From the IMG/VR virus record IMGVR_UViG_2912649904_000001, positions 1 through 64,000 of that record: DNA of 64,000 bases. One strand, given 5' to 3'. Each line of letters opens with the position of its first letter. Position 1 is the stretch's first letter. The notes beneath the pieces are model-generated. The model did no database searches and was not told the DNA's origin. It worked only from the letters and a program-made list of their open reading frames with translations. Below, piece after piece: positions 3,302 through 51,577 of this stretch. Position numbers and translations under genes: made by a program. Source of the DNA: a virus (taxonomy: Duplodnaviria; Caudoviricetes).

Positions 3302-4531
3302 TCAGGCTCCGGTCCATCGGGCGAAGGCGGCCAGTGCCTCATCCTGCGTCCGGTCCAACCGGACTAGCGCGCCGGTGACGTGACGGGTCGTCGGATGGAA
3401 GCGCGTATGCACGGGGCTGATCCCCCGGGCCGTCGCGAGGTCCGCGAAGGCACCGCGGCGGTCGCCTTCGGTGAGCCGGGCCGCCGCGACGTCAATGTGG
3501 TGGTGCGATGCCCGCTCGCGGGCGATGCCGGACGGCAGCTCCCACTCCGTACGGTCCTGCTCAGCACCCCACTCCCGGAGCCGAGCCAGGGCCTGCTCCG
3601 TGTCCCCGGAGTCAATCAACGTCGCAACCTCATGGATGCGCACGTTCGTCGGGCCGAACGACATCTCGTAGTGCATCGAGTCATCGCGGAGCAGTGCGGC
3701 CGTCTCCCGTGCCTCGGCAAGCCGCTCCCACGCCCGTTCCGGATGCCCGTCCCGCACCTCGACCATCGCGAGCTTGAGGAGGAGAGCACCGCTCACGGCC
3801 AGCGCCTGGTCCGTGTACGAGTTCTCTGGCTGAATCCGATCTACCTCGACCATGAGCCCTTCGAGGAGCCGCCTGGCCGAGGAGAAGGACCCCATCCGGA
3901 CCATGGCGCCCGCCTTGAGGTAGGCGGCCGTGACCTGCATCAGCGAATCGCCGGACCGATCGGCGGCCCAGTGCACTCGCTCTACCGCCGTGAGGGAGAG
4001 GTCGTGGTACCCGAGCTTGTGAGCGAGGGAGTTCGTCGCCCGGTAGCCGCGGGCGAGCCACCAGTACGCTTCCCGACGCTCCCGATCATCCCGGGCCGTG
4101 AGCGCGGCATGCGTCAGCTCTGTGAGCACACCGGGGAGTAGCGGGCCCATCGGTACGTACTGGCCGTTCTGCCGCATCTCCGAGATGAGGTCCATCTCCG
4201 CCGCGAGGACCGGTAGAGGGCGGGCCGCCGCCTGAAGGTCATCGGGGTTGTCATAGGTCAGCAGGACACGGCGCAACTCCGGGATCACCGCCTGCACTTG
4301 GTCCTCGGATTCGGCACCGTTCATGTAGGGCTGACCGGTGAGGCGGTCCGGGCCGACGCCGAGAGCCCGTGCAAGGTTGGCGAGGAGGCCAGCGGTCGGC
4401 GTGCGCGACCCGGCCTCGAACTTCTCAAGGAGGCTGACAGAGATCGATACGCGGTCAGCGAGCCCGCGCACCGTGAGCTGTCGGACCTTCCGCAGCTCTC
4501 GGATCTGCTGGCCTACGTGCGGCATGCCCAT
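3302..4531 (-). CDS. XRE-family HTH regulator with long helical C-terminal domain
   Basis: VGQQIRELRKVRQLTVRGLADRVSISVSLLEKFEAG HTH. Confidence 0.9.
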   Translation of the reverse strand: MGMPHVGQQIRELRKVRQLTVRGLADRVSISVSLLEKFEAGSRTPTAGLLANLARALGVGPDRLTGQPYMNGAESEDQVQAVIPELRRVLLTYDNPDDLQAAARPLPVLAAEMDLISEMRQNGQYVPMGPLLPGVLTELTHAALTARDDRERREAYWWLARGYRATNSLAHKLGYHDLSLTAVERVHWAADRSGDSLMQVTAAYLKAGAMVRMGSFSSARRLLEGLMVEVDRIQPENSYTDQALAVSGALLLKLAMVEVRDGHPERAWERLAEARETAALLRDDSMHYEMSFGPTNVRIHEVATLIDSGDTEQALARLREWGAEQDRTEWELPSGIARERASHHHIDVAAARLTEGDRRGAFADLATARGISPVHTRFHPTTRHVTGALVRLDRTQDEALAAFARWTGA

Positions 4532-32602: not shown

Positions 32603-32834
32603 GGTTGATCCTCCTCACCGGTAGCGGGCTGTCGGGGTCGTCGCAGATTTCGCACCACGTCCAGATGCCGACGGTGGCGACACCGCCGGGGCTGAGCAGC
32701 AGCAGCGGTGTGGTGATCTGCGTCCACGCCTTGCAGTCCGCGCACCAGCCCGTCACCAAAGTTCCGGCGTGCAGGGACAAGTCCCCGCCGGTTGGGGCCT
32801 GTAGCGGCAGCTGAGGGCCGCGGGGCCCGGTCAC
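32595..32834 (-). CDS. Small Zn-ribbon protein
   Basis: WCADC..WCEIC; GTGA overlap with the portal stop. Confidence 0.6.
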   Translation of the reverse strand: MTGPRGPQLPLQAPTGGDLSLHAGTLVTGWCADCKAWTQITTPLLLLSPGGVATVGIWTWCEICDDPDSPLPVRRINRA

Positions 32835-34567
32835 TGGGCGCCGCCGACACACGAGGTGAGGACGGTCGACACCAGCCGGTATTCGTGCTCGATGCCGGCC
32901 GCGATCAGCTCCCGGGCGTAGTTGTCGAGCGACGCGGTCAGGCACTCGACGTCGAGGCCGTAGCGGATGGCGATCTCGGGGGCGCGGGACCAGGCGCCAT
33001 CGAGGAGCCGCCACTGTTCGACCTGCGTGGGCTCGACCGGGAGCAGCGTGTGCAGGCGGGCTGAGTCGACGTCGCGGGCCTTCGCGCGCTCACTGCGGGG
33101 GCAGGCGGGCGTCTTCCGCAGCTTCTCCCCGGCGGCGGTCAGCGCGCACCAGATCAGACCGTCCGCGGCGGCGAGGAGCCCGTCACTGGCGCCAACCGTG
33201 GCCGAGGCGGGCAGGGTGTCCGGCTCTGCCTCCGTCTCGTCGACGGGCAAGTCGGGCCCGCCGGGCGCCTCCTCGGTGTCGTCGGCGTTCTCGTCCTGGT
33301 CGTCGTTGTTGGTCTGCTGCTCGGCTTCGGTGGGGGCGTCGCTGTCGTCGAAGCCGGTCTCGCGGCGGAGGGCGTCGGCGGAGATAGCGCGTCGGTCGAA
33401 GACCTGCAACGCGGTCTCCGACCTGTTCGTACGGACGCGGAGTGGGCTGGTGTCGTACCAGACGAGCCAGCGGTGCCAATCCGGATCGCCTTCGGATTCG
33501 AGAATGGGGCGGAGCCACTGCTGCGTGAGGGCGTAGGAGACCGTCCGCAGCTTCGGTTCGATGCCCAGGCGGATCGCCTCGGAGGTGAGTGCCCAGGCGC
33601 CCCAGTGGTTCACGTCGCCGAGTCCGAGCAGGATCTCGGCGGGGATCTCAAGGCCGGTCGCGAAGCGTCGCACGGCCTCTTCCCGCAGCTTGAGCGCGAG
33701 TTCGTCAAACTGCGACTCGAAGGTGATGTGCTTGAACTCGGCGATGGTGTCCGGCGGCAGCTCCAGCACGATCGGCACCGTCGCGGCGGCGCTCTCGGGG
33801 TCGCGGATCGCGGTTTCGGCGATCGTCATGAAAATCTCGATCAGGTCGTCCTCGCCTGATCCCTGCTGCTGTGACGACGGGAACCGTGTGCCCTTGGGGA
33901 CGAGGAGCAGTCCCCGGCCGGTGATCCTGCTGCGGGCGATGGCCTTCACAGCGGCGTTGAGGAGGAGCAGTTCCTCCAGAAGCTCCAGCGACGACCTGAC
34001 CGGGCTGTCGGCGTCGATGGACCGCTCGGGGTCCGGCTCCCACACGCGGAGCGCCACCGGCCCGTCGGGGTCCATCGTGTCGGGGTCGCCCTCGGGGATC
34101 GGGACGTCTTCGCCGTCGATCTCCGCTGTGAGCTTGCCTTGCTGCTGGCGGACCTCGCGTACGGACAGGACACGCCAGTCGTGGCCGTCTTCCGGCGCGT
34201 ACGGCGAGAGGACTTCGGCGTTGGGGCGAATGACGATCCAGCCCTCGCCGGGCACGGTCAGGTGTTTCCCGAACTGACCGAGCATCTTGGCCTGTCCGTC
34301 GGCGCCTCCGGCGATCTGGTCGACGATCTCGGCTGCGCGGTGGCCGGCCGGGGCCGGGTCGATCGAGCCGTCATCGTCCCGCCTGCCCGCGTAGAGGCGG
34401 GCGCCGGACATGGCGTTGCCGATCCACGAGGCGGCGAACCGCACTTCGGGGACCTGGTGGTACATGTCGTAGGCGCGGTGCTGCCATGACTGGTCGCCGG
34501 AGCCTTTCCCTCGGATCTTCCTGGAGGTGTAGCGGGATGCGGCGGCGACGATCTCCTTACGCGGCAT
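32831..34567 (-). CDS. Portal protein
   Basis: WQHRAYDMY..PEVRF, LREEAVRRFATGLEIPAEIL, NHWGAW. Confidence 0.88.
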   Translation of the reverse strand: MPRKEIVAAASRYTSRKIRGKGSGDQSWQHRAYDMYHQVPEVRFAASWIGNAMSGARLYAGRRDDDGSIDPAPAGHRAAEIVDQIAGGADGQAKMLGQFGKHLTVPGEGWIVIRPNAEVLSPYAPEDGHDWRVLSVREVRQQQGKLTAEIDGEDVPIPEGDPDTMDPDGPVALRVWEPDPERSIDADSPVRSSLELLEELLLLNAAVKAIARSRITGRGLLLVPKGTRFPSSQQQGSGEDDLIEIFMTIAETAIRDPESAAATVPIVLELPPDTIAEFKHITFESQFDELALKLREEAVRRFATGLEIPAEILLGLGDVNHWGAWALTSEAIRLGIEPKLRTVSYALTQQWLRPILESEGDPDWHRWLVWYDTSPLRVRTNRSETALQVFDRRAISADALRRETGFDDSDAPTEAEQQTNNDDQDENADDTEEAPGGPDLPVDETEAEPDTLPASATVGASDGLLAAADGLIWCALTAAGEKLRKTPACPRSERAKARDVDSARLHTLLPVEPTQVEQWRLLDGAWSRAPEIAIRYGLDVECLTASLDNYARELIAAGIEHEYRLVSTVLTSCVGGAQ

Positions 34568-35859: not shown

Positions 35860-36029
35860 GCCGAAATTCCCCTCCCTGTCTGCGGACCTTCTGTGACGAT
35901 CGATCGCAAGTCGTCAGGCTCAGGGGGTAGTTCGTTGATCACGCTCGGCGTAGTGGGCGGTGATCGCCCCCTCGATGCGTGAGCATATGGCTTTCGCGCG
36001 TTCGTCGGCGGCTCGCTACGGTCGTCGCC

Positions 36030-36842
36030 ATGGGCGAAGGGCGATGGCAAAAGCGAGGCGGGAAAGTCCTCTACGAAGGCGGGCCACAAAACCGGATCCG
36101 GCTCACTGTCGACACCGCAGTCCGGCCGGACGGGGCCACGGTGGATTATCCGTACGTCGCGGCGCCGGACTCGGTGCGTGTGCTGGCGGTGCATCAGGGG
36201 CAGGTTGCGGCGGTGACCCAGCACCACTACCTCCACGACGCGCAGATCACTGACCTGCCCGGAGGTTACGTCGACGAGGGGGAAGATCCGGCCGCTGCCG
36301 CCCTCCGGGAGCTGGAGGAGGAGACCGGTCTCCGGGCTGCCTGGCTGCACCCGCTTGGCGCGGTGGCTACTGCTCGTGCGACCAGCGCCGAGAAAGCTCA
36401 CCTCTTCCTCGCGTACGGCTGTACCGAGGGGCCCGTCTCGCTGGATGCGGGCGAGTCAGTGCGTTGCTCGTGGCTGACGTGGCCAGACTTGACCGAGATT
36501 GATCTCGCAATACCGGTCGCGCTACCTCAACCCTTGGCTGACGCGGCATCGTTGGCCGCGATCGAGAGGGCACGGGCGCTGCTGCGGGCTGTGGGCGGAG
36601 ACCTTCCAGCCGCCCGAGACGACCTCCCTAGCGCTGCTTCGGCGGCGTCTACGGTGGCTGCGCTCCGCTGCCCGTTCGCGGACGACCGCCTCAGCCTGGT
36701 CTGGATGGACCTGGCGGTGGGCCGGACTGCGGAGGGTGCCGCGATCCTGGCTGAGCTAAAAGGGGCGTATGACGGGCCGCGGGCGGACGGTGCGTGGCAG
36801 CACGCGGCCGACCGGTTCTCGGATCTGGCGCGGCGTTCGTAA
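36030..36842 (+). CDS. Nudix hydrolase with C-terminal extension
   Basis: LPGGYVDEGEDPAAAALRELEEETG Nudix box. Confidence 0.9.
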   Translation: MGEGRWQKRGGKVLYEGGPQNRIRLTVDTAVRPDGATVDYPYVAAPDSVRVLAVHQGQVAAVTQHHYLHDAQITDLPGGYVDEGEDPAAAALRELEEETGLRAAWLHPLGAVATARATSAEKAHLFLAYGCTEGPVSLDAGESVRCSWLTWPDLTEIDLAIPVALPQPLADAASLAAIERARALLRAVGGDLPAARDDLPSAASAASTVAALRCPFADDRLSLVWMDLAVGRTAEGAAILAELKGAYDGPRADGAWQHAADRFSDLARRS

Positions 36843-36940: not shown

Positions 36941-38524
36941 TCACTTGCTGATGCGGCGGCCGTACAGCCCGGCGGAGGACGGTGTTTGCCGCCCGGCGGT
37001 GGGCTGCGGGGCGGTTGGGAGCGGGGCGTGGACGATCGCGCCGCGGTTCGCCTCGGGGATCAGGCCGTACACGAGGATGCACGAGGCGTCGATCCGGCCC
37101 GGTGAGTCCGGGTCGGTCGGCTGCCAGGTCGCCCACTCGTTCTCCAGATCGGCGAACGCGCCGCGAAGGCGCACCCGGTCCTGGACCATCTGTTGCGCCA
37201 CGGGCTCGGCCCTGAGCAGCTTGCCTTGCTTGGCGCGCACGGGGTCGATCAGCGGCATCAGGTGGCTCTCGGGAATGGCGCCTTCGCGTTGGAGCGTTTC
37301 CCACGACGTCTCCAGGGCGAGGACGGCCATGTCTCTGCCGAAGTTCCACTCGACGTAGATGATCGCCGCGTTCGTCTCATAGGCGAGCAGGCAGGCTGTC
37401 TTGGACCACTCGGCCGACGACATGGGCGCCGATCGGTCGTGGGTGATCCAGACGCGCTTGTCGTCGCCGAGGAAGCCACTGACGACGCCGGCGGTGTCCC
37501 GGCCGCCGCCCGAGGGATCGATCGCGACGGCGATCTTCTGCGGCTCGACCTTCGTGGACCCGTCCCGGATGAGCCGCAGCAGGTCGCGTGATACCAGCGC
37601 GCCTTCGGACGGCTGCGGGTCGCCCTGCGCCATGGCGTGCCAGTCCCGGACGCTGGACGTCTTCTTGACGTCCGCCCACCACGCCAGGAGCTGCTTCCGC
37701 TGCCTTGTGGGGATCTTCGGGTGCGGCAGCGGCTCCCCGTCCTGGCGGCCGAGCGGGTCGGGGCCGAACTTGCTGGGGTTGGCGATGGCGGGCAGGTGGA
37801 CGACCGCCCACCGGCCGCCGTCCTCCAGGCGGCCTTCATCCTCCAGGCGCCGGCCGGAGAAGTCGTCGGGGTGCCAGCGGGTCTGGATCGCCACCACGGC
37901 GTTCCGGTCCGGCTGCAACCGCTTGAGTGCGGCCGAGCTCCACCAGTCGTGGACTTGCTCCCGCAGCCGGGCCGACTCGGCTTCGCTGCGGTCCTTGTGC
38001 GGGTCGTCGACGACGAGGAGGTTCACCGGGAAGCCGGTGAGGCCCGAGCCAATTGACACGCTGCGGACGCCGCCGCCCTTCGTGGTGTCGTAGTCCTGCG
38101 CGGCCGACGAGCCTGCGAGGAGCGCCAGGTCGTACTCGCCGCCGTGCTCGGCGATGTACCGGCGAATCGCCTTGCCTCGCCGCATCGCCAGGTCGTCGCT
38201 GTAGGACGTGACGGCGACACGGTCCTCGGGGTGGAGGCACAGCCACCAGAACGGAAACCATTCGGCGACCGTCGTGCTCTTGCCGACCTGGCTCGGCGTG
38301 AACACCATCAACCGGTCGTAGTCGCCGCGCTCCAGGCCCACCAGGGCCTCGCTGATGACCCGCAGGTGCGGGCGCATCCGGAACGAACCATCGAGGCCCC
38401 GGGCAAGGGTGACCGGGTCACGCAGGAGGTCCTGCCCGATCGCTCGCTCGGCGGCCTGGAGCCGCTGATACACCTCGGCGTCCTCCAGATGCTCAAGGCC
38501 GGTGGCGTTTATCACCGCGGTCAT
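36941..38524 (-). CDS. terL: Terminase large subunit
   Basis: Walker A PSQVGKST, Walker B LLVVDDPHKD, nuclease AIDPS..DSPGRIDA. Confidence 0.95.
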   Translation of the reverse strand: MTAVINATGLEHLEDAEVYQRLQAAERAIGQDLLRDPVTLARGLDGSFRMRPHLRVISEALVGLERGDYDRLMVFTPSQVGKSTTVAEWFPFWWLCLHPEDRVAVTSYSDDLAMRRGKAIRRYIAEHGGEYDLALLAGSSAAQDYDTTKGGGVRSVSIGSGLTGFPVNLLVVDDPHKDRSEAESARLREQVHDWWSSAALKRLQPDRNAVVAIQTRWHPDDFSGRRLEDEGRLEDGGRWAVVHLPAIANPSKFGPDPLGRQDGEPLPHPKIPTRQRKQLLAWWADVKKTSSVRDWHAMAQGDPQPSEGALVSRDLLRLIRDGSTKVEPQKIAVAIDPSGGGRDTAGVVSGFLGDDKRVWITHDRSAPMSSAEWSKTACLLAYETNAAIIYVEWNFGRDMAVLALETSWETLQREGAIPESHLMPLIDPVRAKQGKLLRAEPVAQQMVQDRVRLRGAFADLENEWATWQPTDPDSPGRIDASCILVYGLIPEANRGAIVHAPLPTAPQPTAGRQTPSSAGLYGRRISK

Positions 38525-39147
38525 GGGGTCTCGCTCTCGTCATCGTCGTCGGCGGGGCCGTCTTCCTCATCGTCGCCGTCGACCGCGCGGACGCGGCGGG
38601 ACACCGACGCCGCGAGGCCAGCCAGGCGTACCCGCCGCTGCTCCGGCGGCATCTGCGCGAACTCGGCGAGCTGCACCGCGAGCGGGTTCCCGCCGGTGCC
38701 GGTGACCGCGATCGTCGCCGCCGGGTCACCGAAGAGGACGCGCCGGTGCCGCATGGCCACGTCCAGGAGCCGGATGAAATCGCCGACGGACATCGACCCG
38801 GCGTCGAGGGTGCCGAGGCGTTGCGCCAACTTGCCCACCGCCGCGCCCAAGATCCGTGCGTCGGTCTCGGCCGCCTTGCGCCGCTCCTCGACCCAGCCGG
38901 CCTCGTACAGCCGGTCCAGGTGTCGGTCCCACGAGTCGGCGCGCTCGCGCCACCGGTAGGTCGCCGCCGCCTTCCGGACCGTCACCGGGTGAAGCTGTAG
39001 CCCCTCCGCAGCCTTCTGTAGGGTCCGCGTGCGCCCGAGATCGCGGTAGGTGACGAACTGGCCGTGCTTGCGGGCAGTCTCGTCGGGTTGCTGCTCCCAG
39101 GGGTCCAGGGTTGGACTGAGGCTGATGGGGGGCTTGTTGGCGCTCAC
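38521..39147 (-). CDS. terS: Terminase small subunit
   Basis: PWEQQPDET..F..YRDLG..W.ERADSWD; ATGA overlap with terL. Confidence 0.8.
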   Translation of the reverse strand: MSANKPPISLSPTLDPWEQQPDETARKHGQFVTYRDLGRTRTLQKAAEGLQLHPVTVRKAAATYRWRERADSWDRHLDRLYEAGWVEERRKAAETDARILGAAVGKLAQRLGTLDAGSMSVGDFIRLLDVAMRHRRVLFGDPAATIAVTGTGGNPLAVQLAEFAQMPPEQRRVRLAGLAASVSRRVRAVDGDDEEDGPADDDDESETP

Positions 39148-39153
39148 GGTGGC

Positions 39154-40050
39154 CTACGCAGGGGTGTCGAGGTACTGGTTGGCCCACAGCTCCAGTGCCT
39201 TGTACCGGTGCTCTGCGGGGACATCGCCACGGGCTACAGCCTGCTGGAGGGCTTTCTCGACGATCGCGGCGGACTTCGTGGGCATCGCGTCGGTGTGGAA
39301 CAGGGTGAGGAGCGGGGCCATGCCGTGATGCTTGGGCTCCCCCGTGTCCCGGTCGAACCAGGCGTCGACGAGTTCGGCGGCGTGGTCCTTGAAGCTCTCC
39401 AGGATGAGGCCGAAGGCGGTGGCGACGTTGGTGACGTCGCTGCTCTTGGAGGCGAGGTCGAGGGCAGCCATGGTCTGGTCGTACTGGCGGAGAGCGGCGA
39501 CCCAGACGGCGTCGGATGAGGAGGCGAGGCCGAGGGCGTCGCGGATGACGTCCTGGGCGTCCTTGAGGTCGTCGGGGAGGAACACGATCGCGAGGGTCTG
39601 GAAGCTCAGGTTGGCCTCGCCGAGGCTGGGGCTGTCGAGGTCGGCGAGGAGTTCCAGGGTGGCGTCGTCGAGTCCAGCGTACTGGCGGAGGTCGAGGTCT
39701 TCGATCTTCTCGTAGAGGGTCTTGAGGATCGCCAGATCGTCTTCCCCGGCGATCGAGTTGTGCGAGAGCTGGATGGCGAGGCGCTGCGACTCGGTGAGCA
39801 GGTCGGAGGTCTCTAGCCAGGTGATCTCTTCGATTCCGGCCTCGATGGCGGCCTTCGTGCGGTGGTTACCGGAGAGGACGATCCGCTCGCCGGACCCGAT
39901 GTCGTGCCAGACGAACGGGGTGGAGGTCAGGGCTTCGTCGCGGCGGACGTTCGCGACGAGCTGCTGATACTGCTCGTGCCGCATGTAGCGCGCGTTCAGG
40001 TCGAGGAGCTTCAGCGAGCGGGGGTCGCCGGTGCGGATCTCGGTCTTCAC
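39154..40050 (-). CDS. ParB/Srx N-terminal-domain protein of a DNA-modification locus
   Basis: NARYM..LVANV..IVLSGNHRTKAA; GTGA-coupled to the upstream methylase-like gene. Confidence 0.85.
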   Translation of the reverse strand: MKTEIRTGDPRSLKLLDLNARYMRHEQYQQLVANVRRDEALTSTPFVWHDIGSGERIVLSGNHRTKAAIEAGIEEITWLETSDLLTESQRLAIQLSHNSIAGEDDLAILKTLYEKIEDLDLRQYAGLDDATLELLADLDSPSLGEANLSFQTLAIVFLPDDLKDAQDVIRDALGLASSSDAVWVAALRQYDQTMAALDLASKSSDVTNVATAFGLILESFKDHAAELVDAWFDRDTGEPKHHGMAPLLTLFHTDAMPTKSAAIVEKALQQAVARGDVPAEHRYKALELWANQYLDTPA

Positions 40051-41459
40051 TTCTTCACGTCCTTGCCGTATCGCTTCTTCCACTCGCGCAGGACCTCGGC
40101 GAGCGGCTTGCCAGAGAATGCGGCTCCGTACTGGAGCTGGTACTGCTGGGCGTAGTACGAGTCGGTCGGGTCGATGCCCTTCGCCCAGTCCTCCTTGAGG
40201 ACGTCTTTCTGATCACGCTTCAGGAGGCGGAGCACGCCGCGGTACTTCATCGACACCGGGCGCTTCGTGAAAGCGGTGGTGGCGAGCGACTGGTAGCGGC
40301 GATGTCCGTGCCGCCAGGTGAGGAGCTGCGCTTCGCGGCTGATCGCGGCCATGACGATCAGCTTCGACAGCTTGGCGTAGCGGCTGGTGGAGACCGGGAA
40401 GTCGGACAGCATGTAGACGGTGGGCTGCTGAGGCAGGTGCGCGCCCCAGTTCCCGAGGGTCGGTGCCCACGAGTACGCGAACACGCCGACCAACTTCCCG
40501 TCGACGAGGACTGCGACGCCGAGCGATTCGGAGCCGGGGCGGATGTTGGCGTTCATGTACGCCGAGCGGAGCGCTGCGAACTGGCCTCCGCTGAGGACGG
40601 CGAGGCTGATCCTGTCGCCGATCTCCTCGTCGCCGAGGTGAGGGCCGGGCCACGCCTCGGTCTTCTGACGGGGCTCGACCAGGCGCATCGGCCCTGAGTT
40701 CGCGTAGACGTAGATCGGGATGCCGCGGTTCGTCGTCCTGGTCCGGCCGCGCAGGAACGGCGCCATCTCGGGGACCTCCTCGTTGGTGCCGAGGAGCCAG
40801 TGGTCCCGGTCGGTGATCCGTTGGATCAGGTACTCAAGCTCGGGGTCCTCCATGATCGTGAACTCGGGCGGCGTCCACTCGAACATCTCCTCCAGCTTGG
40901 CGAAGTCGCGGACGAACGCCGCGCCGGCGCCGTGGAACGGCGGGTAGGACACGACGCCAGCGCCAGGCGGGATCTTGTCGACCCAGGTCAGGGCGTCCTC
41001 GGCGCTGTAGGAGGCAAGCTTGAGGACTTCGGCCGCTGCGGTGACCTTCGCGACGGTCTTGGCGTGCAGGTCGGGCCACTGCTGCTCGTATGCCTTGCGC
41101 ATCTTCGACCAGTAGACGTGCGATTCGTTCTTGCCCATGAGCGGGGCGAGGCGCGTGCACAGCAGCATCGTGGCGAGCTGTTCGGCCGGGGTGTCGTGGC
41201 GCTCCAGCGCCCACGGGAACTCGGCCTCGGCGGTTGGGGTGAAGACGAGCGGCATCGGGTCGTCGGCGAGGTACCGGCCGATTGCGGTCGAGTACATGAG
41301 CACGTCGCAGGAGTGGAGGTCTTTCCCCAGCGACGCGAGGGTCTTCTCGACGGTGAAGTTCCCGCAGCACACGTTGTAGACGTCGGTCACGTCGGTCCAC
41401 AGGGAGACGTGCTCTCGGACGATTCGGCACATGTCGCTGGGGATCGAGCCGTGGAACAT
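40047..41459 (-). CDS. DAM-like adenine methyltransferase fold fused to a GNAT-like C-terminal domain
   Basis: VYNVCCGNFTVE (motif I-like), SYPPF (motif IV variant); C-terminal VLVDGKLVGVFAY..LSKLIV..SMKYRG. GNAT call is from recall of similar phage proteins. Confidence 0.7.
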   Translation of the reverse strand: MFHGSIPSDMCRIVREHVSLWTDVTDVYNVCCGNFTVEKTLASLGKDLHSCDVLMYSTAIGRYLADDPMPLVFTPTAEAEFPWALERHDTPAEQLATMLLCTRLAPLMGKNESHVYWSKMRKAYEQQWPDLHAKTVAKVTAAAEVLKLASYSAEDALTWVDKIPPGAGVVSYPPFHGAGAAFVRDFAKLEEMFEWTPPEFTIMEDPELEYLIQRITDRDHWLLGTNEEVPEMAPFLRGRTRTTNRGIPIYVYANSGPMRLVEPRQKTEAWPGPHLGDEEIGDRISLAVLSGGQFAALRSAYMNANIRPGSESLGVAVLVDGKLVGVFAYSWAPTLGNWGAHLPQQPTVYMLSDFPVSTSRYAKLSKLIVMAAISREAQLLTWRHGHRRYQSLATTAFTKRPVSMKYRGVLRLLKRDQKDVLKEDWAKGIDPTDSYYAQQYQLQYGAAFSGKPLAEVLREWKKRYGKDVKK

Positions 41460-41576
41460 GGCTGGCTCCCTGGTGGTTCTGGCGGGGCCGGGCGGTGCAT
41501 CCGGCCGGGCGGGGATGGTAGCCGACCAGTGACGGACCGTGTCCGCGTCGCCGCAGGCCAAGGAGGGCCTAACAAC

Positions 41577-41606
41577 GGGGAAGCCCCCCGGCTGCGGAGG
41601 GCTTCC
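41577..41606 (-). terminator. Hairpin directly after the tRNA CCA end
   Basis: GGAAGCCCTCCG-CAGC-CGGGGGGCTTCC followed by CCGTTGTT on the minus strand. Confidence 0.7.
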
Positions 41607-41611
41607 TCTTC

Positions 41612-41686
41612 TGGAGCGCCGGCCAGGATTCGCACCTGGACCTCCCGCCCGGAAGGCGGATGTGCTGCTGTTGCTACCACCGGCGC
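41612..41686 (-). tRNA. Atypical tRNA-Gly(TCC)
   Basis: GCGCCGG TG GTAGCAACAGCAGCAC A TCCGC CTTCCGG GCGGG AGGT CCAGG TGCGAAT CCTGG CCGGCGC T CCA: 7-bp acceptor stem, TCC anticodon, U73, encoded CCA. Confidence 0.88.
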
Positions 41687-41808
41687 ACTACGGTCGGCCG
41701 CGCCGCTGCTCAGGACGGCCGATCGCAGAGAGGGATGATACACACACTCTCAGCAATCACATCTGCGCGCGGTGGAGGGCTGCAATCGCGGGCTGCACCT
41801 AGGCCCGG

Positions 41809-42395
41809 CTACGCCCGTCGGGCGGCGCCACCGCGTTCCCTCTTTCCGCCAGCACGGAATCCGTGCATCGACTGCCCTTCGCGGCGGGCCGCCCGGGATG
41901 CTGACTCCCGACTCAACGCCTCGCCGCGCGAGTTCAGCAGGAGTGGACCTGCGTCGCGTCCAGCCATGGCGGCGCGGACCAGATCGTCCGCCTTGCCGGA
42001 GAGCGGGACCGCGCGCTGCCCCGGCCGCGAATATCCTCCGCAGTGGCGGTCTTCCCCTCGGGGTCGATGTCGCGGACGTCGAGGGAGAGGGCTTCGGCCA
42101 GCCGGAGTTCGCTCTCCCACATCAACGCCCACAGTGCCCGGTGCGCGGCAGGGATCGACTCGTCGGCGATGAGGCGCCGGTACTCTTCGGGGCTCACCTC
42201 AAGTTGCGGAAGGTCGGTGCGGTGCCCCTTGCCGGGCATGCACTGGCGGGCGGCCTCGGCGGCAGCCCTGTCGTACCTCATGGCTCCGGTGTCGGGGTCG
42301 CGGTCGATCGCATCGACGGGGGCGAGGACACGGCGCGCGGCGGCGGCGCTCAGGCCCCAGCGCTGGGCGCATTCTCGGACAGTGGTCAACTCCAT
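41809..42395 (-). pseudogene. Frameshifted, truncated tyrosine-recombinase-like gene with N-terminal HTH
   Basis: RALWALMWESELRLAEALSLDVRDID in one frame, RAVPLS..GPLL..MHGFR in the next; break near 42030; no C-terminal Tyr. Confidence 0.7.
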
Positions 42396-42827: not shown

Positions 42828-43754
42828 TCAGGCGCCGACGGGTTCGATGGCGTCGGCGGCGCAGTCCGGGCACTGCTGCCGGTAGGTACACGGCCTGTGC
42901 GCGCCGCGGCGACCGTTGCAGTGCACGCAGTTGCCGGGGTGGTGGGCGTGGCCTGCCAATAGGTTCAGCGCCTCGCTGAGGGTCGAGGCACCGAGGACAC
43001 GGATACCGTCGACCTCGCGGGCCTCGGGCACGTTCGCGTCCGGGACTAGGACGACCGGGGCTCCGGCGTCGGCAGCGGCCCGCACCAGGTCGCGAATGTC
43101 GCGGACCGACCGCAGCTTGCCATCCAGGCCGAGTTCCCCGATCAGCACGAGCCCGGCCAGCGCCGAAGCGGCGAGTTGCCCGGTCGCGGCGAGCACCGCG
43201 CACGCGAAAGCCAGGTCAAGGCTGCTGCCACCGGGCTCGTCGCCGAGCGCGACGACGCCCACCGTGACATTCGACTGGTTCCAGGTCAGGCCGCTGTTCA
43301 CCATCCCTGCGCGCACTCGGTCGCGAGTCTCGATGCGGTTCCGCTCGCGCACCCCGAACACGTTGAAGTTCGGCACGCCCGGGGTGCTGGTGCCCTCCAG
43401 CCGGTACACGGTGGCCCCGGCGACGGCGAGCGCTTCGGCGCTGCCGTACGGCTCGATGGCCGGGGCGGCGTCGCCGAGGGGGCCGTACGCCTCCATGTTG
43501 CTGTCCGGGCTCAGCCCGTAGTTGTCGACGCCGCTGCGCTCGCGCAGGTGGGCAACGTGCTGGTCGACGGCCGCGCGGGCGCTGGCGGCCCACATGGTGG
43601 TGACCTCGCCGAAGGCGTCCATGGCCTCGACGCCGATCTCTTCGAGTGCGATGGCGCACTTCGTGGCGTCGGTCGGCGCGGGGGCGACGTCCCACAGGGT
43701 GTAGCTGCTGCCTTGGTCCTGGCCGACGATGATGTACTCGCGGGTCTCGCTCAT
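42828..43754 (-). CDS. Fusion protein containing a ComM/YifB N-terminal (Lon-C-like) domain
   Basis: ETRDRVRAGMVNSG, GSSLDLA, IGELGLDGKLRSV, VLVPDANVPEA; no ATPase domain. Confidence 0.8.
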   Translation of the reverse strand: MSETREYIIVGQDQGSSYTLWDVAPAPTDATKCAIALEEIGVEAMDAFGEVTTMWAASARAAVDQHVAHLRERSGVDNYGLSPDSNMEAYGPLGDAAPAIEPYGSAEALAVAGATVYRLEGTSTPGVPNFNVFGVRERNRIETRDRVRAGMVNSGLTWNQSNVTVGVVALGDEPGGSSLDLAFACAVLAATGQLAASALAGLVLIGELGLDGKLRSVRDIRDLVRAAADAGAPVVLVPDANVPEAREVDGIRVLGASTLSEALNLLAGHAHHPGNCVHCNGRRGAHRPCTYRQQCPDCAADAIEPVGA

Positions 43755-43774
43755 GGCGTTGCCCTTCCGGCTGG

Positions 43775-44281
43775 TCACTGGGCGTCGGTGAGGTCGAAGT
43801 GCGCGCCGAGCGCTTCGATCTGCTCGGTCTGGGTGCGGCTGAGGGCGTCGCCGGGGTCGCCGCAGGTGCGGTACAGGTCGACGGCGGAGCGCAGGACACC
43901 GAGGACGCCAAGGACGTCGAGGGGTTCGAGCACGGACACGGGACCGGCCAGCGTCGTCTCGGGCGTAACCAACTCGCGCTGGACGTCGACTAGGTCGCGG
44001 CAGCGGAAGATGCGGAGGCCGTAGGCCAACTCGCCGATGCTCGACTCTTCCTCCCGGACGTAACGGACGATTGTCCAATCCGGAGAGCGCCCAGCGGCCA
44101 TGCGGAAGATGGCCTGGGCCGTGGGGTGGTCCTCGCCGAACATGGCGGCGGGGTCGTCCTCGTCGTTCCAGACGTCGAGAACTTCCCGCCATTCGCCGTC
44201 GATCAGGGCGGTGTCGGTGTCTTCAAGGTCGGCCGCGCGGACCGAGTCGGCGGTCCAGGTGGATCGGGTCGGGGTGCTCAC
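43775..44281 (-). CDS. Hypothetical protein
   Basis: GGAGG RBS before GTG; acidic protein-like ORF. Confidence 0.7.
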   Translation of the reverse strand: MSTPTRSTWTADSVRAADLEDTDTALIDGEWREVLDVWNDEDDPAAMFGEDHPTAQAIFRMAAGRSPDWTIVRYVREEESSIGELAYGLRIFRCRDLVDVQRELVTPETTLAGPVSVLEPLDVLGVLGVLRSAVDLYRTCGDPGDALSRTQTEQIEALGAHFDLTDAQ

Positions 44282-44484: not shown

Positions 44485-46233
44485 TCAGGCGGTCAGGGCC
44501 AGGGAGAGCGGGCCACGCCCCTCGGCGAACCGGGACAGCTCCTCGCCGGTGATCGCCTCGACCAATGCGCAGTACAGGTTCTCGGCGACGCCCGGGGTGA
44601 CCGCGTTGCCGAGCTGGCGCACCTGATGCCGCTTCGAGCCCATGATCTTGTAGCCCGGCCGGAAGGCCATCGCCCGTGCGATCTCGTGGGGCTGCAACAT
44701 CCTGAACAGGACGTCGTCGATGTTGAACTCGCCCTTCACCAGGGCGTATCGGTCGCGGGTCGGCAGAGCGCCGATCGGCTCGCTGAGTTCCCGGGCCCGG
44801 CCGTTGCCGTAGTACGGGACCAGCAGATGGTCAGGCGCGGCCACCAGACCGTGATGGTTACCGCCAGCCGACACTGTGTGGAGCGGGGCGCTGACGTGCC
44901 GGGCTTTCTCCTTGTCGCCGCCGCCGCGCATGGGGATCACGAAGGGCGGCAGATGAGCGAGGGCGGTCTCCAGGCGGGCCGTCTGGGTGCGCAGCGGGTC
45001 GCCCAAACTCATGGGCTTCTTGCCGTCGCGTCCCTCACAGGGGACCAGGAAGGGCGGGACCACGACGCCGTCGGTCTCGACTGTTGTGCGGGTCGACATC
45101 GGCCGGTCGAGGGTGACAGCCTTGTCCCGCCAGGTACCGCCGGTCGGAACGAGGAGCGGGCCGGGGGCGGCCTGCGGGGCGTCATCCACGTCTCCGAACA
45201 GCGTTTCCTGTCCGTCGTTCGCCTGCGCTCCCCAGCCCCAGAACTGGGCGAACCCGGCACGGGTCCGCGCGATCGTGGCCGGGGCCAACCCCTCGGGGCA
45301 CTCTTCCGTCTTCGGGCGGTCGCCGATCGGCGTCCCGGGTAGCGACCAGTCGATCGCGGCAGCCGCAGGGAGCACCATGGGCTCAACGACTGCGCGGCAG
45401 GCCTTGCGGGGGCACCTGTAGTCGTAGCTCTGGCGATACCTGCCCATGTCCTTGCCCGGCTTGCGGAAGACCTGGACGGCCTCAACCTTCTCGTCGCAGT
45501 CGAAGCAGAAAGCCGCCGGGCGCAGGATCCACTTGTCCCACTGGGGCGTGCGGCCGATGCTCCTGTGGATGTAGGCGACGTACAGCCGGTCTCGGCTCTG
45601 CGGGATGTGGTCGAGGCTGCGCGGGTCGACGTGCATTGAGTTGATCGCGAAGACCCACGTGGCGTAGTTCATCTTGTCGAACTCGGCCATCCAGCGGTCC
45701 CAGTCGTCCCAGTCGCGGCAGTCGATGACGTTCTCGACAACACCCGCCTTGACCAGGCCGCCTCGGGCGATCACACCGCGCAGGTACATGGGGACTTCTT
45801 CCATGAGGGCGCGCGAGCGCTCCTCTGCCGCCCGCCGCTCCTTGTCGCTCTTGAACTCGGGCTCGTCGAAGTCAATCTGACCCTGGAGCGTCTTGTCGAA
45901 GTCGCGCTTCACGCCCCGCGCCGCCGACCACTTGGGGCACTCCGGGCTGGCCCAGAAGATGTCGCACACCGGCCAGCGTTCGACGGGGGCCCGGCGAATG
46001 TCACCCTTCCAGACCTCGCAACGCGGGTTGTTCCACGCGTGCGTCGCGAGGGCCACGTCCCAGTGGTTCGCGGCCCTGGTGACCTGGACGTTGGGGACGG
46101 CGTCCGCGCCCTGCGTGTCGCCGCCAGCTCCGCAGAACCAACTCATGACGGTGAGTTCGCTGCCGTCGTGCTTGTAGGCGCGGGCCGGTCTGCCTGCGGC
46201 CCATGCCTGGGTGGTGGAGTCGATATAGGGCAC
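44485..46233 (-). CDS. DNA (cytosine-5) methyltransferase
   Basis: FCGAGG, ASPEC, VENV, PQSRDR, QLGNAV. Confidence 0.95.
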   Translation of the reverse strand: MPYIDSTTQAWAAGRPARAYKHDGSELTVMSWFCGAGGDTQGADAVPNVQVTRAANHWDVALATHAWNNPRCEVWKGDIRRAPVERWPVCDIFWASPECPKWSAARGVKRDFDKTLQGQIDFDEPEFKSDKERRAAEERSRALMEEVPMYLRGVIARGGLVKAGVVENVIDCRDWDDWDRWMAEFDKMNYATWVFAINSMHVDPRSLDHIPQSRDRLYVAYIHRSIGRTPQWDKWILRPAAFCFDCDEKVEAVQVFRKPGKDMGRYRQSYDYRCPRKACRAVVEPMVLPAAAAIDWSLPGTPIGDRPKTEECPEGLAPATIARTRAGFAQFWGWGAQANDGQETLFGDVDDAPQAAPGPLLVPTGGTWRDKAVTLDRPMSTRTTVETDGVVVPPFLVPCEGRDGKKPMSLGDPLRTQTARLETALAHLPPFVIPMRGGGDKEKARHVSAPLHTVSAGGNHHGLVAAPDHLLVPYYGNGRARELSEPIGALPTRDRYALVKGEFNIDDVLFRMLQPHEIARAMAFRPGYKIMGSKRHQVRQLGNAVTPGVAENLYCALVEAITGEELSRFAEGRGPLSLALTA

Positions 46234-50371: not shown

Positions 50372-51577
50372 TCAGGCGGCGTCGGCCGCGGCCTGCGGGT
50401 TGATCTCGATGCCGCCCGCGCGGACGGCGGCGACCGCCTGGGCGTCGCGCAGGTTCTTGATGGCCTTGGTCGTCAGGTCCCGCAGGTGCTCGATGCGCGT
50501 TCGGTAGCCGACGACGCCGCCGCCGACTCCGGCCAGCAGCAGAGCCAGTTCCTCGGGGTCGGCCGCGACCAGCTCGGACAGGATCTCGCCGGCCGTGGAG
50601 AGCTTGTCGATGCGCTTGGTCAGCCGGATGCGGTCGGCGGTGATCCGCTCGCGCTCCTCGTCGGTGACGTCGTGCGCACCGGGCAACAACTGCTGCTCGC
50701 CGCCCGGCGTCGCGGCGGCCGTCGCCTCGTCGGACAGGACGAAGAACGAGCCCTGCGAGGTTCGCCGGTCCTCCTCGCTGCGGACGGCCTGAGCGAACGC
50801 CTCCGCGTCGCGCTTGGTGGAGAAGTCGCCCCGGGTCCACTTGGCGAGGAACCGCATCTGGTTCTCGTGGCTGATGTTGGCCACGTACCAGGACACCCCG
50901 ATGGGCAGGTGGCCTTTGTTGACCGCGTCCTGCAAGGGCTCGGCGAGCTTGAGCAGGTCGATGCGCCAGCCGATGTACGCGGCGGACTTGCCGGTGCCCT
51001 CGGCGACCTCATCGATGGTGTACCCGTCGTCGATGAGCTGCTGGAAGGCACCGGCCTCCTCCATCGCGGTCATGTCCGCGCGGCCGACGTTCTCCGCGAC
51101 GGCCCTCATGCGGATCGTGCGGTCGCCTTGCTTGATGCCGTGCTGAACGACGGCGTCCAGCTCGGTCAGACCCGCGATCTTCGCGGCCCGCCAGCGCCGT
51201 TCGCCCATGATGAGCGTGTAGCGCTTGGTGCCCGGGTTGTATCGGACGCTCACCGGCTGCTGCTGGCCGATCAGTTTCATGGAGCCAGCCAGCTCGCTCA
51301 GCTTCGCCGGGTCGAAGTGCTTGCGGGGCTGGTCGGGGTCGGCGTCGATCCGGTCGACCGGAATCGTCTTGAGAGACGTGCGCACGTGGGCTGCGGTCGC
51401 CTCCGTCTGCTCGGCGATCGTCTCGCGGCGCTTGGCGACCTTGGTCGGCGTGACGACCTTCTTCGCCGGGGCCTTCCGTGCGGGCGCTTTGGTCGCCGCG
51501 TTCTTCGGCGCTGCCTTCTTGGGCTCGGCCTTCTTCGCCGGGGTGGCGGTGCTGGCCTCGGTGGTGGTGGCGGTCAT
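50372..51577 (-). CDS. parB: ParB/RepB/Spo0J partition protein
   Basis: DQPRKHF, LIMGERRWRA, ENVGRADM, HTH. Confidence 0.9.
   Translation of the reverse strand: MTATTTEASTATPAKKAEPKKAAPKNAATKAPARKAPAKKVVTPTKVAKRRETIAEQTEATAAHVRTSLKTIPVDRIDADPDQPRKHFDPAKLSELAGSMKLIGQQQPVSVRYNPGTKRYTLIMGERRWRAAKIAGLTELDAVVQHGIKQGDRTIRMRAVAENVGRADMTAMEEAGAFQQLIDDGYTIDEVAEGTGKSAAYIGWRIDLLKLAEPLQDAVNKGHLPIGVSWYVANISHENQMRFLAKWTRGDFSTKRDAEAFAQAVRSEEDRRTSQGSFFVLSDEATAAATPGGEQQLLPGAHDVTDEERERITADRIRLTKRIDKLSTAGEILSELVAADPEELALLLAGVGGGVVGYRTRIEHLRDLTTKAIKNLRDAQAVAAVRAGGIEINPQAAADAA

Follow-up and report, generated by a model that had tools for sequence, protein, structure and literature searches.

This work concerns a 64,000-nucleotide stretch of DNA (positions 1 to 64,000 of IMG/VR virus record IMGVR_UViG_2912649904_000001; hereafter, the window) and, within it, a module of three neighbouring genes: (i) a tRNA-Gly(UCC)-like gene (41612–41686), identified by both ARAGORN and Rfam, (ii) a gene for a 470-amino acid fusion of a Dam-like and a GNAT-fold domain (40047–41459; ATG at 41459, stop at 40047), and (iii) a ParB/Srx-like partner gene (39154–40050). 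The region is a prophage in a high-G+C actinobacterial genome (7.9 Mb, one contig), with its genes in order along the minus strand. The module is followed by the genes for the small and large terminase subunits, terS (38521–39147; phrog_6299, 6.4e-19) and terL (36941–38524; phrog_38, 9.8e-77, the Pfam Terminase_6N match falling below its cut-off), and further downstream by the portal gene (32831–34567), all on the minus strand.

The original prediction, made from the sequence alone, proposed that the fusion enzyme glycylates DNA bases with glycine carried by the neighbouring tRNA. It described a co-oriented, 75-nt tRNA-Gly(TCC) some 150 nt ahead of a 470-amino acid gene, which is coupled through the sequence GTGA to a ParB-type gene and then to terS and terL. 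This layout stands: ARAGORN places the tRNA at 41612–41686 on the minus strand, the strand of the enzyme gene, with 152 nt between the tRNA 3' end and the enzyme ATG; the enzyme stop codon TGA (40049–40047) shares bases with the GTG start codon of the ParB-like gene (40050–40048); and PHROG matches were obtained for the ParB-like, terS and terL genes.

A Pfam scan of the long open reading frame (ORF) encoding the enzyme returned PF22555 (DAM-like-phage1) at residues 36–309 (E 1.2e-99; 333.5 bits against a cut-off of 27) and PF22559 (GNAT-phage-like) at residues 316–498 (E 1.5e-55; 187.9 bits against a cut-off of 27). The window protein is thus a full-length member of both families, in that order and above both curated cut-offs. 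Its AlphaFold model likewise consists of two domains (predicted local distance difference test score, pLDDT, 86.5). Within the 470-residue protein, the Dam-like domain covers residues of about 1–265 (40665–41459, minus strand) and the GNAT-fold domain residues of about 281–470 (40050–40619, minus strand). The motifs CCGNF and SYPPF and the separate C-terminal domain described earlier can all be recognized, the former as NVCCGNFT and VSYPPFHG and the latter as the second of the two Pfam domains.

Structural alignment (VIA-align) assigns a Dam fold to the N-terminal domain. Residues 1–256 align with EcoDam (2ore_D) at Z 13.9 over 190 residues, with a root-mean-square deviation (rmsd) of 4.5; T4 Dam (1q0s) follows at Z 13.5 with 186 aligned residues, and DpnM (2dpm) at Z 12.1. 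The alignments to EcoDam and T4 Dam (186–195 residues) take in the DNA-recognition part. Pfam MethyltransfD12 gave no match at E 0.01, and neither the enzyme nor its neighbours, the ParB-like protein and terS, have an NCBIfam model. Across the family, the domain carries a motif I-like loop (GCSGNFT), the invariant acidic residues D52 and D155, and a motif IV of the form [YF]PPF; as judged from the loop, the acidic residue near position 52 and the PPF near position 173, EcoDam has its motifs in a similar order and at similar spacing.

The simplest interpretation of such a protein would be an anti-restriction N6-adenine methyltransferase, joined to a GNAT with an unrelated acetyl-coenzyme A (acetyl-CoA) function and accompanied by a tRNA that supplements GGA/GGN translation in late genes. 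Homologues are indeed named 'putative antirestriction adenine methyltransferase' by NCBI and UniRef, the Dam fold comes with its conserved glycine-rich loop and acidic residues, and in one related locus (L036) the enzyme gene lies next to an S-adenosylmethionine (SAM) synthetase gene. Nevertheless, we regard this combination as very unlikely. In D12-class N6-adenine methyltransferases, the consensus of motif IV is (D/N/S)PP(Y/F/W). All 27 aligned members of the present family instead have [YF]PPF (19 with Y, eight with F), such that an aromatic residue occupies the position of the D, N or S of amino-methyltransferases and P173, P174 and F175 are invariant. With no (D/N/S)PP(Y/F) in any of the 27, the Dam-like half is probably not a plain methylase; it probably flips its base rather than methylating it. 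The earlier description of the enzyme as adenine-methylase-like therefore survives for the fold and the motif I-like loop, while plain methylase activity becomes doubtful on account of motif IV.

Several individual family members are of interest in their own right. P0149, P0179, P0188, P0195, P0265 and P0255 are proteins of 600–770 amino acids with insertions in the Dam-like domain. Insertions of about 250–270 amino acids fall at a profile position of about 177, exactly at [YF]PPF, one of them with a weak Intein_splicing match, and P0255 carries an HNH-bearing insertion at a profile position of about 110. By their sequences, these insertions look like inteins homing into the most conserved site; the placement of intein-sized insertions exactly at [YF]PPF implies that the motif is functionally critical. 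P0240 (609 amino acids) has an extra C-terminal domain with a restriction-endonuclease fold (weak matches to REase_MTES_1575 and DUF559), an arrangement that recalls the Mom-REase fusions of jumbo phages (PMC7824862). Finally, in L036 a SAM synthetase gene (positions 2–406 of the locus; MetK C-terminal domain, E 2.5e-48) immediately precedes that of the enzyme, occupying the place where the near-identical relative L037 has a tRNA.

The check proposed earlier for the C-terminal domain, a GNAT or Mom fold, turned out in favour of GNAT, both through PF22559 and through structure. Folded alone, the domain gives a model with a pLDDT of 89.8, and a search of 48,161 PDB representatives by a method independent of Foldseek ranked phage Mu Mom first (8bv8_B; Z 10.7, rmsd 3.6, 150 residues aligned). 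Aminoacyl-tRNA transferases of the Fem, L/F-transferase and MprF types are absent from the top 50 structural matches, although a relation to them may still exist. Mom (PF25680) gave no match in the Pfam scan of the enzyme at E 0.01, and profile comparison places the GNAT domain outside the Mom family.

Acyl-CoA-using GNATs bind the pyrophosphate of their cofactor through a loop with the motif Q/RxxGxG/A. The consensus of the corresponding stretch in the present family, after GNAT strand 4, reads DFPVAP..YKRLAKL; it contains no glycine, and hence no such loop, which speaks against the acetyl-CoA function required by the ordinary interpretation above. The alternative donor is suggested by Mom itself. 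The original prediction is right to name Gly-tRNA as the donor of Mom (Silva et al. 2026, PMC13219725): glycine passes from Gly-tRNAGly to N6 of adenine in double-stranded DNA, after which an on-base rearrangement gives N6-carbamoylmethyl-deoxyadenosine (N6-carbamoylmethyl-dA).

We now turn to the tRNA, the sole one called by ARAGORN in the window. It scores 43.5 bits in Rfam (gathering score 29) and keeps the full set of features recognized by glycyl-tRNA synthetase (GlyRS): G1-C72, C2-G71, G3-C70, U73, C35 and C36, together with an encoded CCA. Its elbow is another matter: the D-loop is AACAGCA, without GG, and the T-loop is UGCGAAU, with U54-G55-C56 in place of T-psi-C. With the D-loop GG gone and the T-loop altered, the window tRNA shows the elbow loss that characterizes non-proteinogenic tRNAGly. 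The host genome contains its own tRNA-Gly(TCC) elsewhere, of normal appearance (GG in the D-loop, GTTCGA in the T-loop). In a rough control, TTCRA was present in the T-loop region of 65 of the 80 other ARAGORN calls in the host genome; the remaining 15 are long and have the look of false positives arising in G+C-rich DNA.

The same division between kept and lost features runs through the family, as counted from 56 distinct full-length sequences. The first three acceptor pairs are GCG/CGC (G1-C72, C2-G71, G3-C70) in all 56, as is U73, and C35-C36 is found in 55; an encoded CCA is usual. Acceptor pairs 4–7 and the other stems covary freely, with 97.8% of cells paired and 250 double-sided changes (matched in 0 of 500 shuffles), a count that is partly circular because ARAGORN selects cloverleaves. 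Features of decoding and of the elbow are widely lost: position 34 is T in 30 sequences, A in 14, C in 11 and G in one; 14 have a base other than U at position 33; 17 have a pyrimidine at position 37; the anticodon loop departs from seven bases in four (three of six bases, one of eight); T54-C56 is not TTC in 20; and the D-loop lacks GG in 36.

Published glycylation determinants are G1-C72, C2-G71, U73, C35 and C36 (PMC7826273), and staphylococcal tRNAGly species that serve the cell wall rather than translation lack G18, G19, U55 and C56 (PMC4574755). U73 is found in 231,855 of 232,109 bacterial tRNAGly; it guards Gly-tRNAGly against the deacylase DTD, and matters most for species not shielded by EF-Tu (PMC6097841). 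Judged by sequence, the phage pattern is that expected of an RNA selected only for glycylation and for presentation of its 3' end, while the lost U33, the pyrimidine at position 37 and the free position 34 suggest weak EF-Tu binding and exclusion from the ribosome.

G3-C70 is also counted in the tRNAGly identity set, and to our knowledge a tRNA-Gly with A34 is not a normal bacterial decoder. The features of the tRNAs bear on the third part of the ordinary interpretation, a tRNA that supplements translation. Such a tRNA would be in keeping with the TTC T-loop retained by 36 of the 56. On the other hand, a free position 34 (A34 included), a lost U33 or purine-37 and odd loop sizes are unfit for a decoder, a normal tRNA-Gly(UCC) is already present in the host, and linked ARAGORN calls are for glycine only.

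This last point comes from a survey of homologous loci. Of the candidate stretches from a profile-guided scan of IMG/VR, 541 were confirmed as relatives, and the best 80 were kept as loci; with Mycobacterium phage Megabear, Gordonia phage Sting and two genome contigs, these form a set of 84. The loci span 33–96% protein identity and G+C contents of 0.31–0.72, and those most closely related to the window locus are from Streptomyces species. The enzyme family as a whole has 739 representatives of 50%-identity clusters (E <= 0.001), and both Pfam domains are present in 119 of 120 homologues among the matches listed. In a whole-genome survey, PF22559 was found in two of 401 genomes of the class, G000 included; the family is therefore sporadic there, and viral contigs are the useful source. 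Among GenBank phages, tblastn with the enzyme gave 15 matches, all below 60% identity: ten in Mycobacterium phages (Megabear, Jeon, Taptic and others) and five in Gordonia phages.

ARAGORN made 50 calls in 48 of the 80 IMG/VR loci (527,799 bases): 47 were for tRNA-Gly, three stayed unassigned on account of six-base anticodon loops, and no other amino acid was represented. A covariance model was built from 43 of these tRNAs and run over the 84 loci, giving 62 matches that include copies missed by ARAGORN (those in Sting, L003 and L004 among them). The possibility that the matches are an artefact of the covariance model was considered and set aside, as ARAGORN, which is not trained on the family, had made no calls beyond the glycine and unassigned ones. 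The two GenBank phages illustrate both outcomes. In Megabear, an annotated tRNA-Gly(tcc) stands directly before the enzyme homologue. Sting has no annotated or ARAGORN tRNA, yet the 170-nt gap ahead of its enzyme homologue contains a cloverleaf (50 bits with the covariance model) that shares the acceptor stem and CCA; its anticodon is CCC, preceded by C33, and its T-loop has eight bases.

In 52 of the 84 loci, the enzyme gene is preceded, within 520 nt and in the same orientation, by a tRNA-Gly-like gene; in three the tRNA-like gene lies within this upstream distance on the opposite strand, and in four elsewhere in the fetched flanks (up to 3–5 kb per side). None was found in the flanks of 20 loci, and five have too little upstream DNA for assessment. 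Accordingly, the search for a tRNA-Gly beside homologues, which had been put forward as a check of the original prediction, was positive: of the 79 assessable loci, 52 carry such a gene immediately upstream, and the number rises to 59 when the flanks as a whole are counted. When proteins are clustered at 60% identity, 19 of the 32 clusters have an adjacent tRNA, six have one nearby, and seven have none. The adjacent-tRNA state occurs in both halves of a maximum-likelihood tree (a quick IQ-TREE run; the partial proteins L081, L087 and L088 were left out of both tree and clustering). The linkage of tRNA, enzyme and ParB-like gene is conserved far beyond chance, and recurs in dozens of distant phage contigs.

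Some loci depart from the usual arrangement. L032, L044 and L048 have two tandem tRNA-Gly-like genes ahead of the enzyme gene, with different anticodons (ccc and acc) in L032. In the Streptomyces locus L006, the tRNA-Gly lies at 2321–2394, 1.6 kb upstream of the enzyme gene, and a fragment resembling a tRNA 3' end (...GCTCCA; about 3830–3860) is still found beside the enzyme gene. The leftover fragment points to an insertion of DNA within or next to the tRNA gene.

As a positive control, the 80 closest true Mom loci in IMG/VR were scanned for tRNAs. Three of them (L147, L150 and L151) have a tRNA-Gly(tcc) 120–205 nt upstream of mom, on the same strand; a proven user of Gly-tRNAGly thus sometimes shows the same genomic signature. 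A further Mom locus, L143, gave a partial tRNA match of 36 bits.

The third component of the module is constant. In all 84 loci, the gene immediately after that of the enzyme encodes a homologue of the ParB-like protein (38–50% identity in distant loci), with the invariant motifs SGNHR..AA and QLSHN..G.DD. The window protein matches phrog_7405 (9e-61) and further ParB-like PHROGs in the range 7e-11 to 5e-4, phrog_620 (7e-11) among them; it has no Pfam match at E 0.01, ParB_N included. The original prediction linked ParB genes to phage base-modification loci, and the literature bears this out: orphan ParB-fold proteins have been published as activators of phage post-replicative thymidine dioxygenases (5mYOX), and terminase genes are frequent neighbours of ParB-dependent modification systems (PMC13229309). 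The terminase neighbourhood is likewise recurrent here. In nine of nine diverse loci tested, the ORF in second place after the ParB-like gene is large and is terL, and these terminases span at least three PHROG families (phrog_979, phrog_3717/2 and phrog_38); the small ORF between the ParB-like gene and terL is terS in the one locus where this was tested.

Such proximity raises the question of whether the modification has to do with packaging itself. The chemistry could be the same, with the mark—or a complex of ParB-like protein and enzyme—preparing concatemer DNA for terminase, be it in pac/cos recognition or in telling self from host DNA. The position of the module directly before terS-terL in the window, the overlap of the genes, and the presence of terL after the module despite different terminase families all fit. 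However, a place at the head of the late operon fits late, Mom-like anti-restriction equally well (Mom is expressed late; PMC13219725), and in Megabear and Sting the trio lies away from the annotated terminase gene. We consider a packaging role of this kind quite unlikely.

Taken together, the domain folds, the synteny and the tRNA conservation pattern support a function that we consider reasonably probable: a Mom-like, Gly-tRNA-dependent acylation of phage DNA bases, using a non-decoding glycyl carrier that the phage itself would supply. The proposed sequence of events is as follows. The small RNA gene, by its sequence, keeps only what bacterial GlyRS needs, and host GlyRS would charge the RNA with glycine. 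The charged RNA would stay outside translation, as suggested by the family's wide loss of decoding and elbow features, and would act as a dedicated glycyl donor. The Dam-derived domain would bind double-stranded DNA and flip a base, most likely adenine, into the [YF]PPF pocket, whereupon the GNAT domain, like Mom of phage Mu, would transfer the glycine at the tRNA 3' end onto the exocyclic amine. The adduct could then rearrange to N6-carbamoylmethyl-dA, or stay a different glycine-based adduct. By analogy with the ParB-dependent phage thymidine dioxygenases, the ParB-like protein may load the enzyme onto DNA or activate it there. Expression at the head of the terS-terL operon would time the modification to just before packaging; the DNA in virions would then be protected against restriction by the host, and a tRNA of the phage's own would provide the donor with no drain on translation.

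That the enzyme acts on DNA is suggested by the constant ParB-like gene, the nine of nine terL neighbours, the restriction-endonuclease fusion in P0240 and the activation of 5mYOX by ParB. The tRNA-like RNA may conceivably be the target instead. It could be the substrate of the enzyme, with its glycyl group N-acylated or an adenine methylated, or it could be a decoy for defence toxins that attack tRNA-Gly, such as TacT-type GNATs or toxSAS. GNAT toxins do acetylate Gly-tRNAGly, and the toxSAS FaRel2 picks tRNAGly by its acceptor stem (PMC9177977, PMC9241777, PMC11559606); what the phage tRNAs keep invariant corresponds exactly to the acceptor stem together with C35C36. A decoy, however, would leave the strict synteny with the enzyme and the ParB-like gene unexplained. 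Nor would it account for the Dam-type DNA-binding fold, the P0240 fusion or the fixed place ahead of the terminase genes, and true Mom genes, for which the tRNA is the known donor, show the same upstream tRNA-Gly in three of 80 loci. In our judgement this alternative is unlikely.

A number of observations weigh against tRNA-dependent acylation with a phage-encoded carrier. Firstly, the retention of the glycine-rich loop, D52 and D155 across the family means that a nucleotide pocket may remain; these residues and the metK gene of L036 indicate that SAM use, methyl transfer or a methylated adduct may be involved. Secondly, the kinship with Mom is limited. SbzI and IAA acetyltransferase reach Z 10.1, so that the lead of Mom, being within 1 Z, amounts to a tie with CoA-using GNATs; hhalign gives the GNAT domain and Mom a probability of 0.4–2% (1.7–2.1% against a 22-sequence Mom profile); and a profile search of PDB chain sequences with the enzyme family returned nothing at E 10. 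Thirdly, the TTC T-loop is normal in the 36 tRNAs noted above, and some tRNAs, for example that of Megabear, look able to decode. Fourthly, around the window tRNA, a scan for sigma-70 consensus promoters made no call, including at the two -10-like boxes described below, and neither did a terminator scan. Sequencing runs listed as containing parts of the stretch comprised one DNA run, with a small share of its words, and no RNA run.

The fifth point concerns the 20 of 79 assessable loci without a tRNA in their flanks, 12 of which belong to one tight clade of high-G+C proviruses in the tree. Ten of these records were searched whole, and a tRNA-Gly was found elsewhere in only one (tRNA-Gly(tcc), 4.3 kb upstream). 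In a record rated 100% complete, tRNA-Arg was the only tRNA, the search of one rated 93% complete found no tRNA, and one provirus has a host-type tRNA-Met and two tRNA-Asn genes near an end; in the other six records, 9–53% complete, none was seen. The tRNA is therefore dispensable in some lineages: a private tRNA is common and probably ancestral, without being obligatory. The tRNA-less members keep the invariant GNAT residues and, by analogy with Mom, would have to use host tRNA.

With these points in mind, the proposal can be stated in its broadest form: widespread phages encode a tRNA-derived RNA that has left translation to become the private, GlyRS-charged cofactor of a single DNA-modifying enzyme, made of a retooled Dam and an aminoacyl-GNAT, gated by a ParB-like NTPase and timed to packaging, whose product may differ from N6-carbamoylmethyl-dA and which represents an independent, non-Mom origin of tRNA-dependent DNA acylation. 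For this complete version, we see the arguments for and against as evenly poised.

The DNA around the window tRNA contains further elements, all on the minus strand. Immediately before the tRNA lies a 5' leader hairpin (41687–41728; -25.1 kcal/mol, z -2.7, with one of 200 shuffles folding as well), and the Streptomyces-type loci show a leader resembling that of the window (GGTCGTCCTGAGC...CGACC). Ahead of it, a -10-like hexamer TATCAT (41735–41740), picked out by eye, is a tentative candidate promoter of the tRNA unit; TAnnnT-like boxes occur at the matching place in related loci. After the tRNA comes a trailer hairpin with a 12-bp stem (41579–41606; -24.4 kcal/mol, z -2.1), a possible terminator or processing site that the terminator scan missed because it has no T run, and G+C-rich hairpins are found 3' of the tRNA in related loci as well. 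A second -10-like sequence, TACCAT (41515–41520), lies within a conserved GGCTACCATC box; this box is kept upstream of the enzyme gene in Streptomyces/Actinomadura-type loci, and TACCAT is a candidate promoter of the enzyme-ParB-terminase operon.

The idea that the tRNA is a phage attachment site was rejected. The gene is whole, with its own leader and trailer, and sits inside the phage beside the terminase genes; it is also kept in the genomes of phages isolated from soil; and no integrase adjoins it. The nearest candidate is a short ORF just upstream of the tRNA unit (41934–42395, minus strand) whose match to Phage_integrase is weak and stays under the threshold (E 8e-4; 19.7 bits, cut-off 27.1); it may be a remnant.

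Elsewhere in the prophage, a C5 cytosine DNA methylase is encoded at 44485–46233 (minus strand; PF00145, phrog_116), and a second, canonical ParB (ParB_N plus HTH_ParB) at 50372–51577 (minus strand); the prophage therefore carries several DNA-modification or DNA-binding functions. Upstream of the tRNA, the gene at 42828–44192 (minus strand) is ChlI/ComM-like: the C-terminal part of its product matches the Lon-like domain of ChlI/YifB(ComM) (PF13541, 1.3e-18), but against the full-length YifB models the protein remains far below the required scores; it is a stand-alone domain. The interval from terL to the portal gene contains a NUDIX-domain gene on the plus strand (35979–36842), which looks like an inserted accessory gene. 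In related loci, a small gene whose product contains the motif ...LLCFEDL.KPG.WCHRR.F..WW... is often found ahead of the module (L062, 2285–2863; L061, 1514–1981; by eye in L049, L052 and L004), with weak DUF488-type Pfam matches below the cut-offs.

If the proposal is correct, the strategy is widespread, given the 739 cluster representatives and the range of G+C contents (0.31 to 0.72) of the contigs, and tRNA-dependent DNA modification arose in a GNAT family without a sequence-profile link to Mom. The RNA would be a phage-evolved, non-decoding glycyl carrier that spares host translation and perhaps escapes tRNA-targeting defences, and it would be the first dedicated tRNA cofactor for DNA modification. 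It would also explain the lone tRNA-Gly of Cluster W mycobacteriophages such as Taptic and Megabear. More generally, a tRNA-like gene that keeps only its aminoacylation determinants is an easily tested signature by which tRNA-dependent enzymes could be found, as well as tRNA-like genes overlooked by standard finders. Restriction-resistant DNA and the detection of modifications by sequencing are two areas in which a possible new DNA adduct would matter.

How does the module compare with known systems? We know of no enzyme shown to modify DNA with a charged tRNA before the Mom work (preprint 2023, paper 2026). In the literature searched, we found no account of the PF22555/PF22559 architecture, of a linked tRNA or of a phage-encoded donor tRNA. 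The main text of the Mom paper (PMC13219725) mentions no methyltransferase, fusion or encoded tRNA, and the text of the ParB-fold survey mentions no tRNA, GNAT or terminase. The PF22555 and PF22559 entries and the NCBI product name do no more than name the domains of which the window protein is a full-length member.

The closest comparison is with Mom (PF25680; PDB 8bv8; Silva et al., Nat Commun 2026). Each is a phage enzyme with a GNAT fold, expressed late in the case of Mom and probably so here; Mom is the top structural match, and some true Mom loci (three of 80) have a tRNA-Gly just upstream. The window enzyme differs in its Pfam family (PF22559), which has no detectable sequence-profile relation to Mom. 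Mom acts as a single protein with host tRNA, a use of the host's charged tRNA that may be costly, and requires an HTH-like insertion (residues about 175–209), probably for DNA binding and base flipping (PMC13219725). The window family, in contrast, has a fused Dam-like domain, a constant ParB-like partner and, in most members, its own tRNA; the Dam-like domain is the obvious candidate for a DNA binder in place of Mom's HTH-like insertion. Compared with EcoDam and T4 Dam (D12 class), the enzyme shares the N-terminal fold, including the DNA-recognition part, but has [YF]PPF for DPPY (27 of 27) and a GNAT fusion, and methyl transfer is doubtful.

The phage tRNA resembles the staphylococcal tRNAGly used by FmhB, FemA and FemB. 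Both keep the normal GlyRS determinants G1-C72, C2-G71, U73, C35 and C36 (PMC7826273), and both are diverted from translation—here, as the sequences suggest—with loss of G18, G19 and U55 (PMC4574755). However, the staphylococcal species form a cellular lineage limited to staphylococci, with peptidoglycan as the acceptor, while the present tRNAs are phage-encoded, with DNA as the proposed acceptor; the phage family is also far more degenerate (variable position 34, lost U33, odd loop sizes). The ParB-dependent 5mYOX system (PNAS 2026, PMC13229309) is alike in having an orphan ParB-fold protein beside a DNA-modifying enzyme, with terminase neighbours. There, ParB is required for activation of the enzyme, whose class and chemistry differ from those of the window module. 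In sum, tRNA-dependent DNA modification is already known from Mom; new are the enzyme family, the fused Dam-like module, the constant ParB-like partner and the proposed private, non-decoding tRNA.

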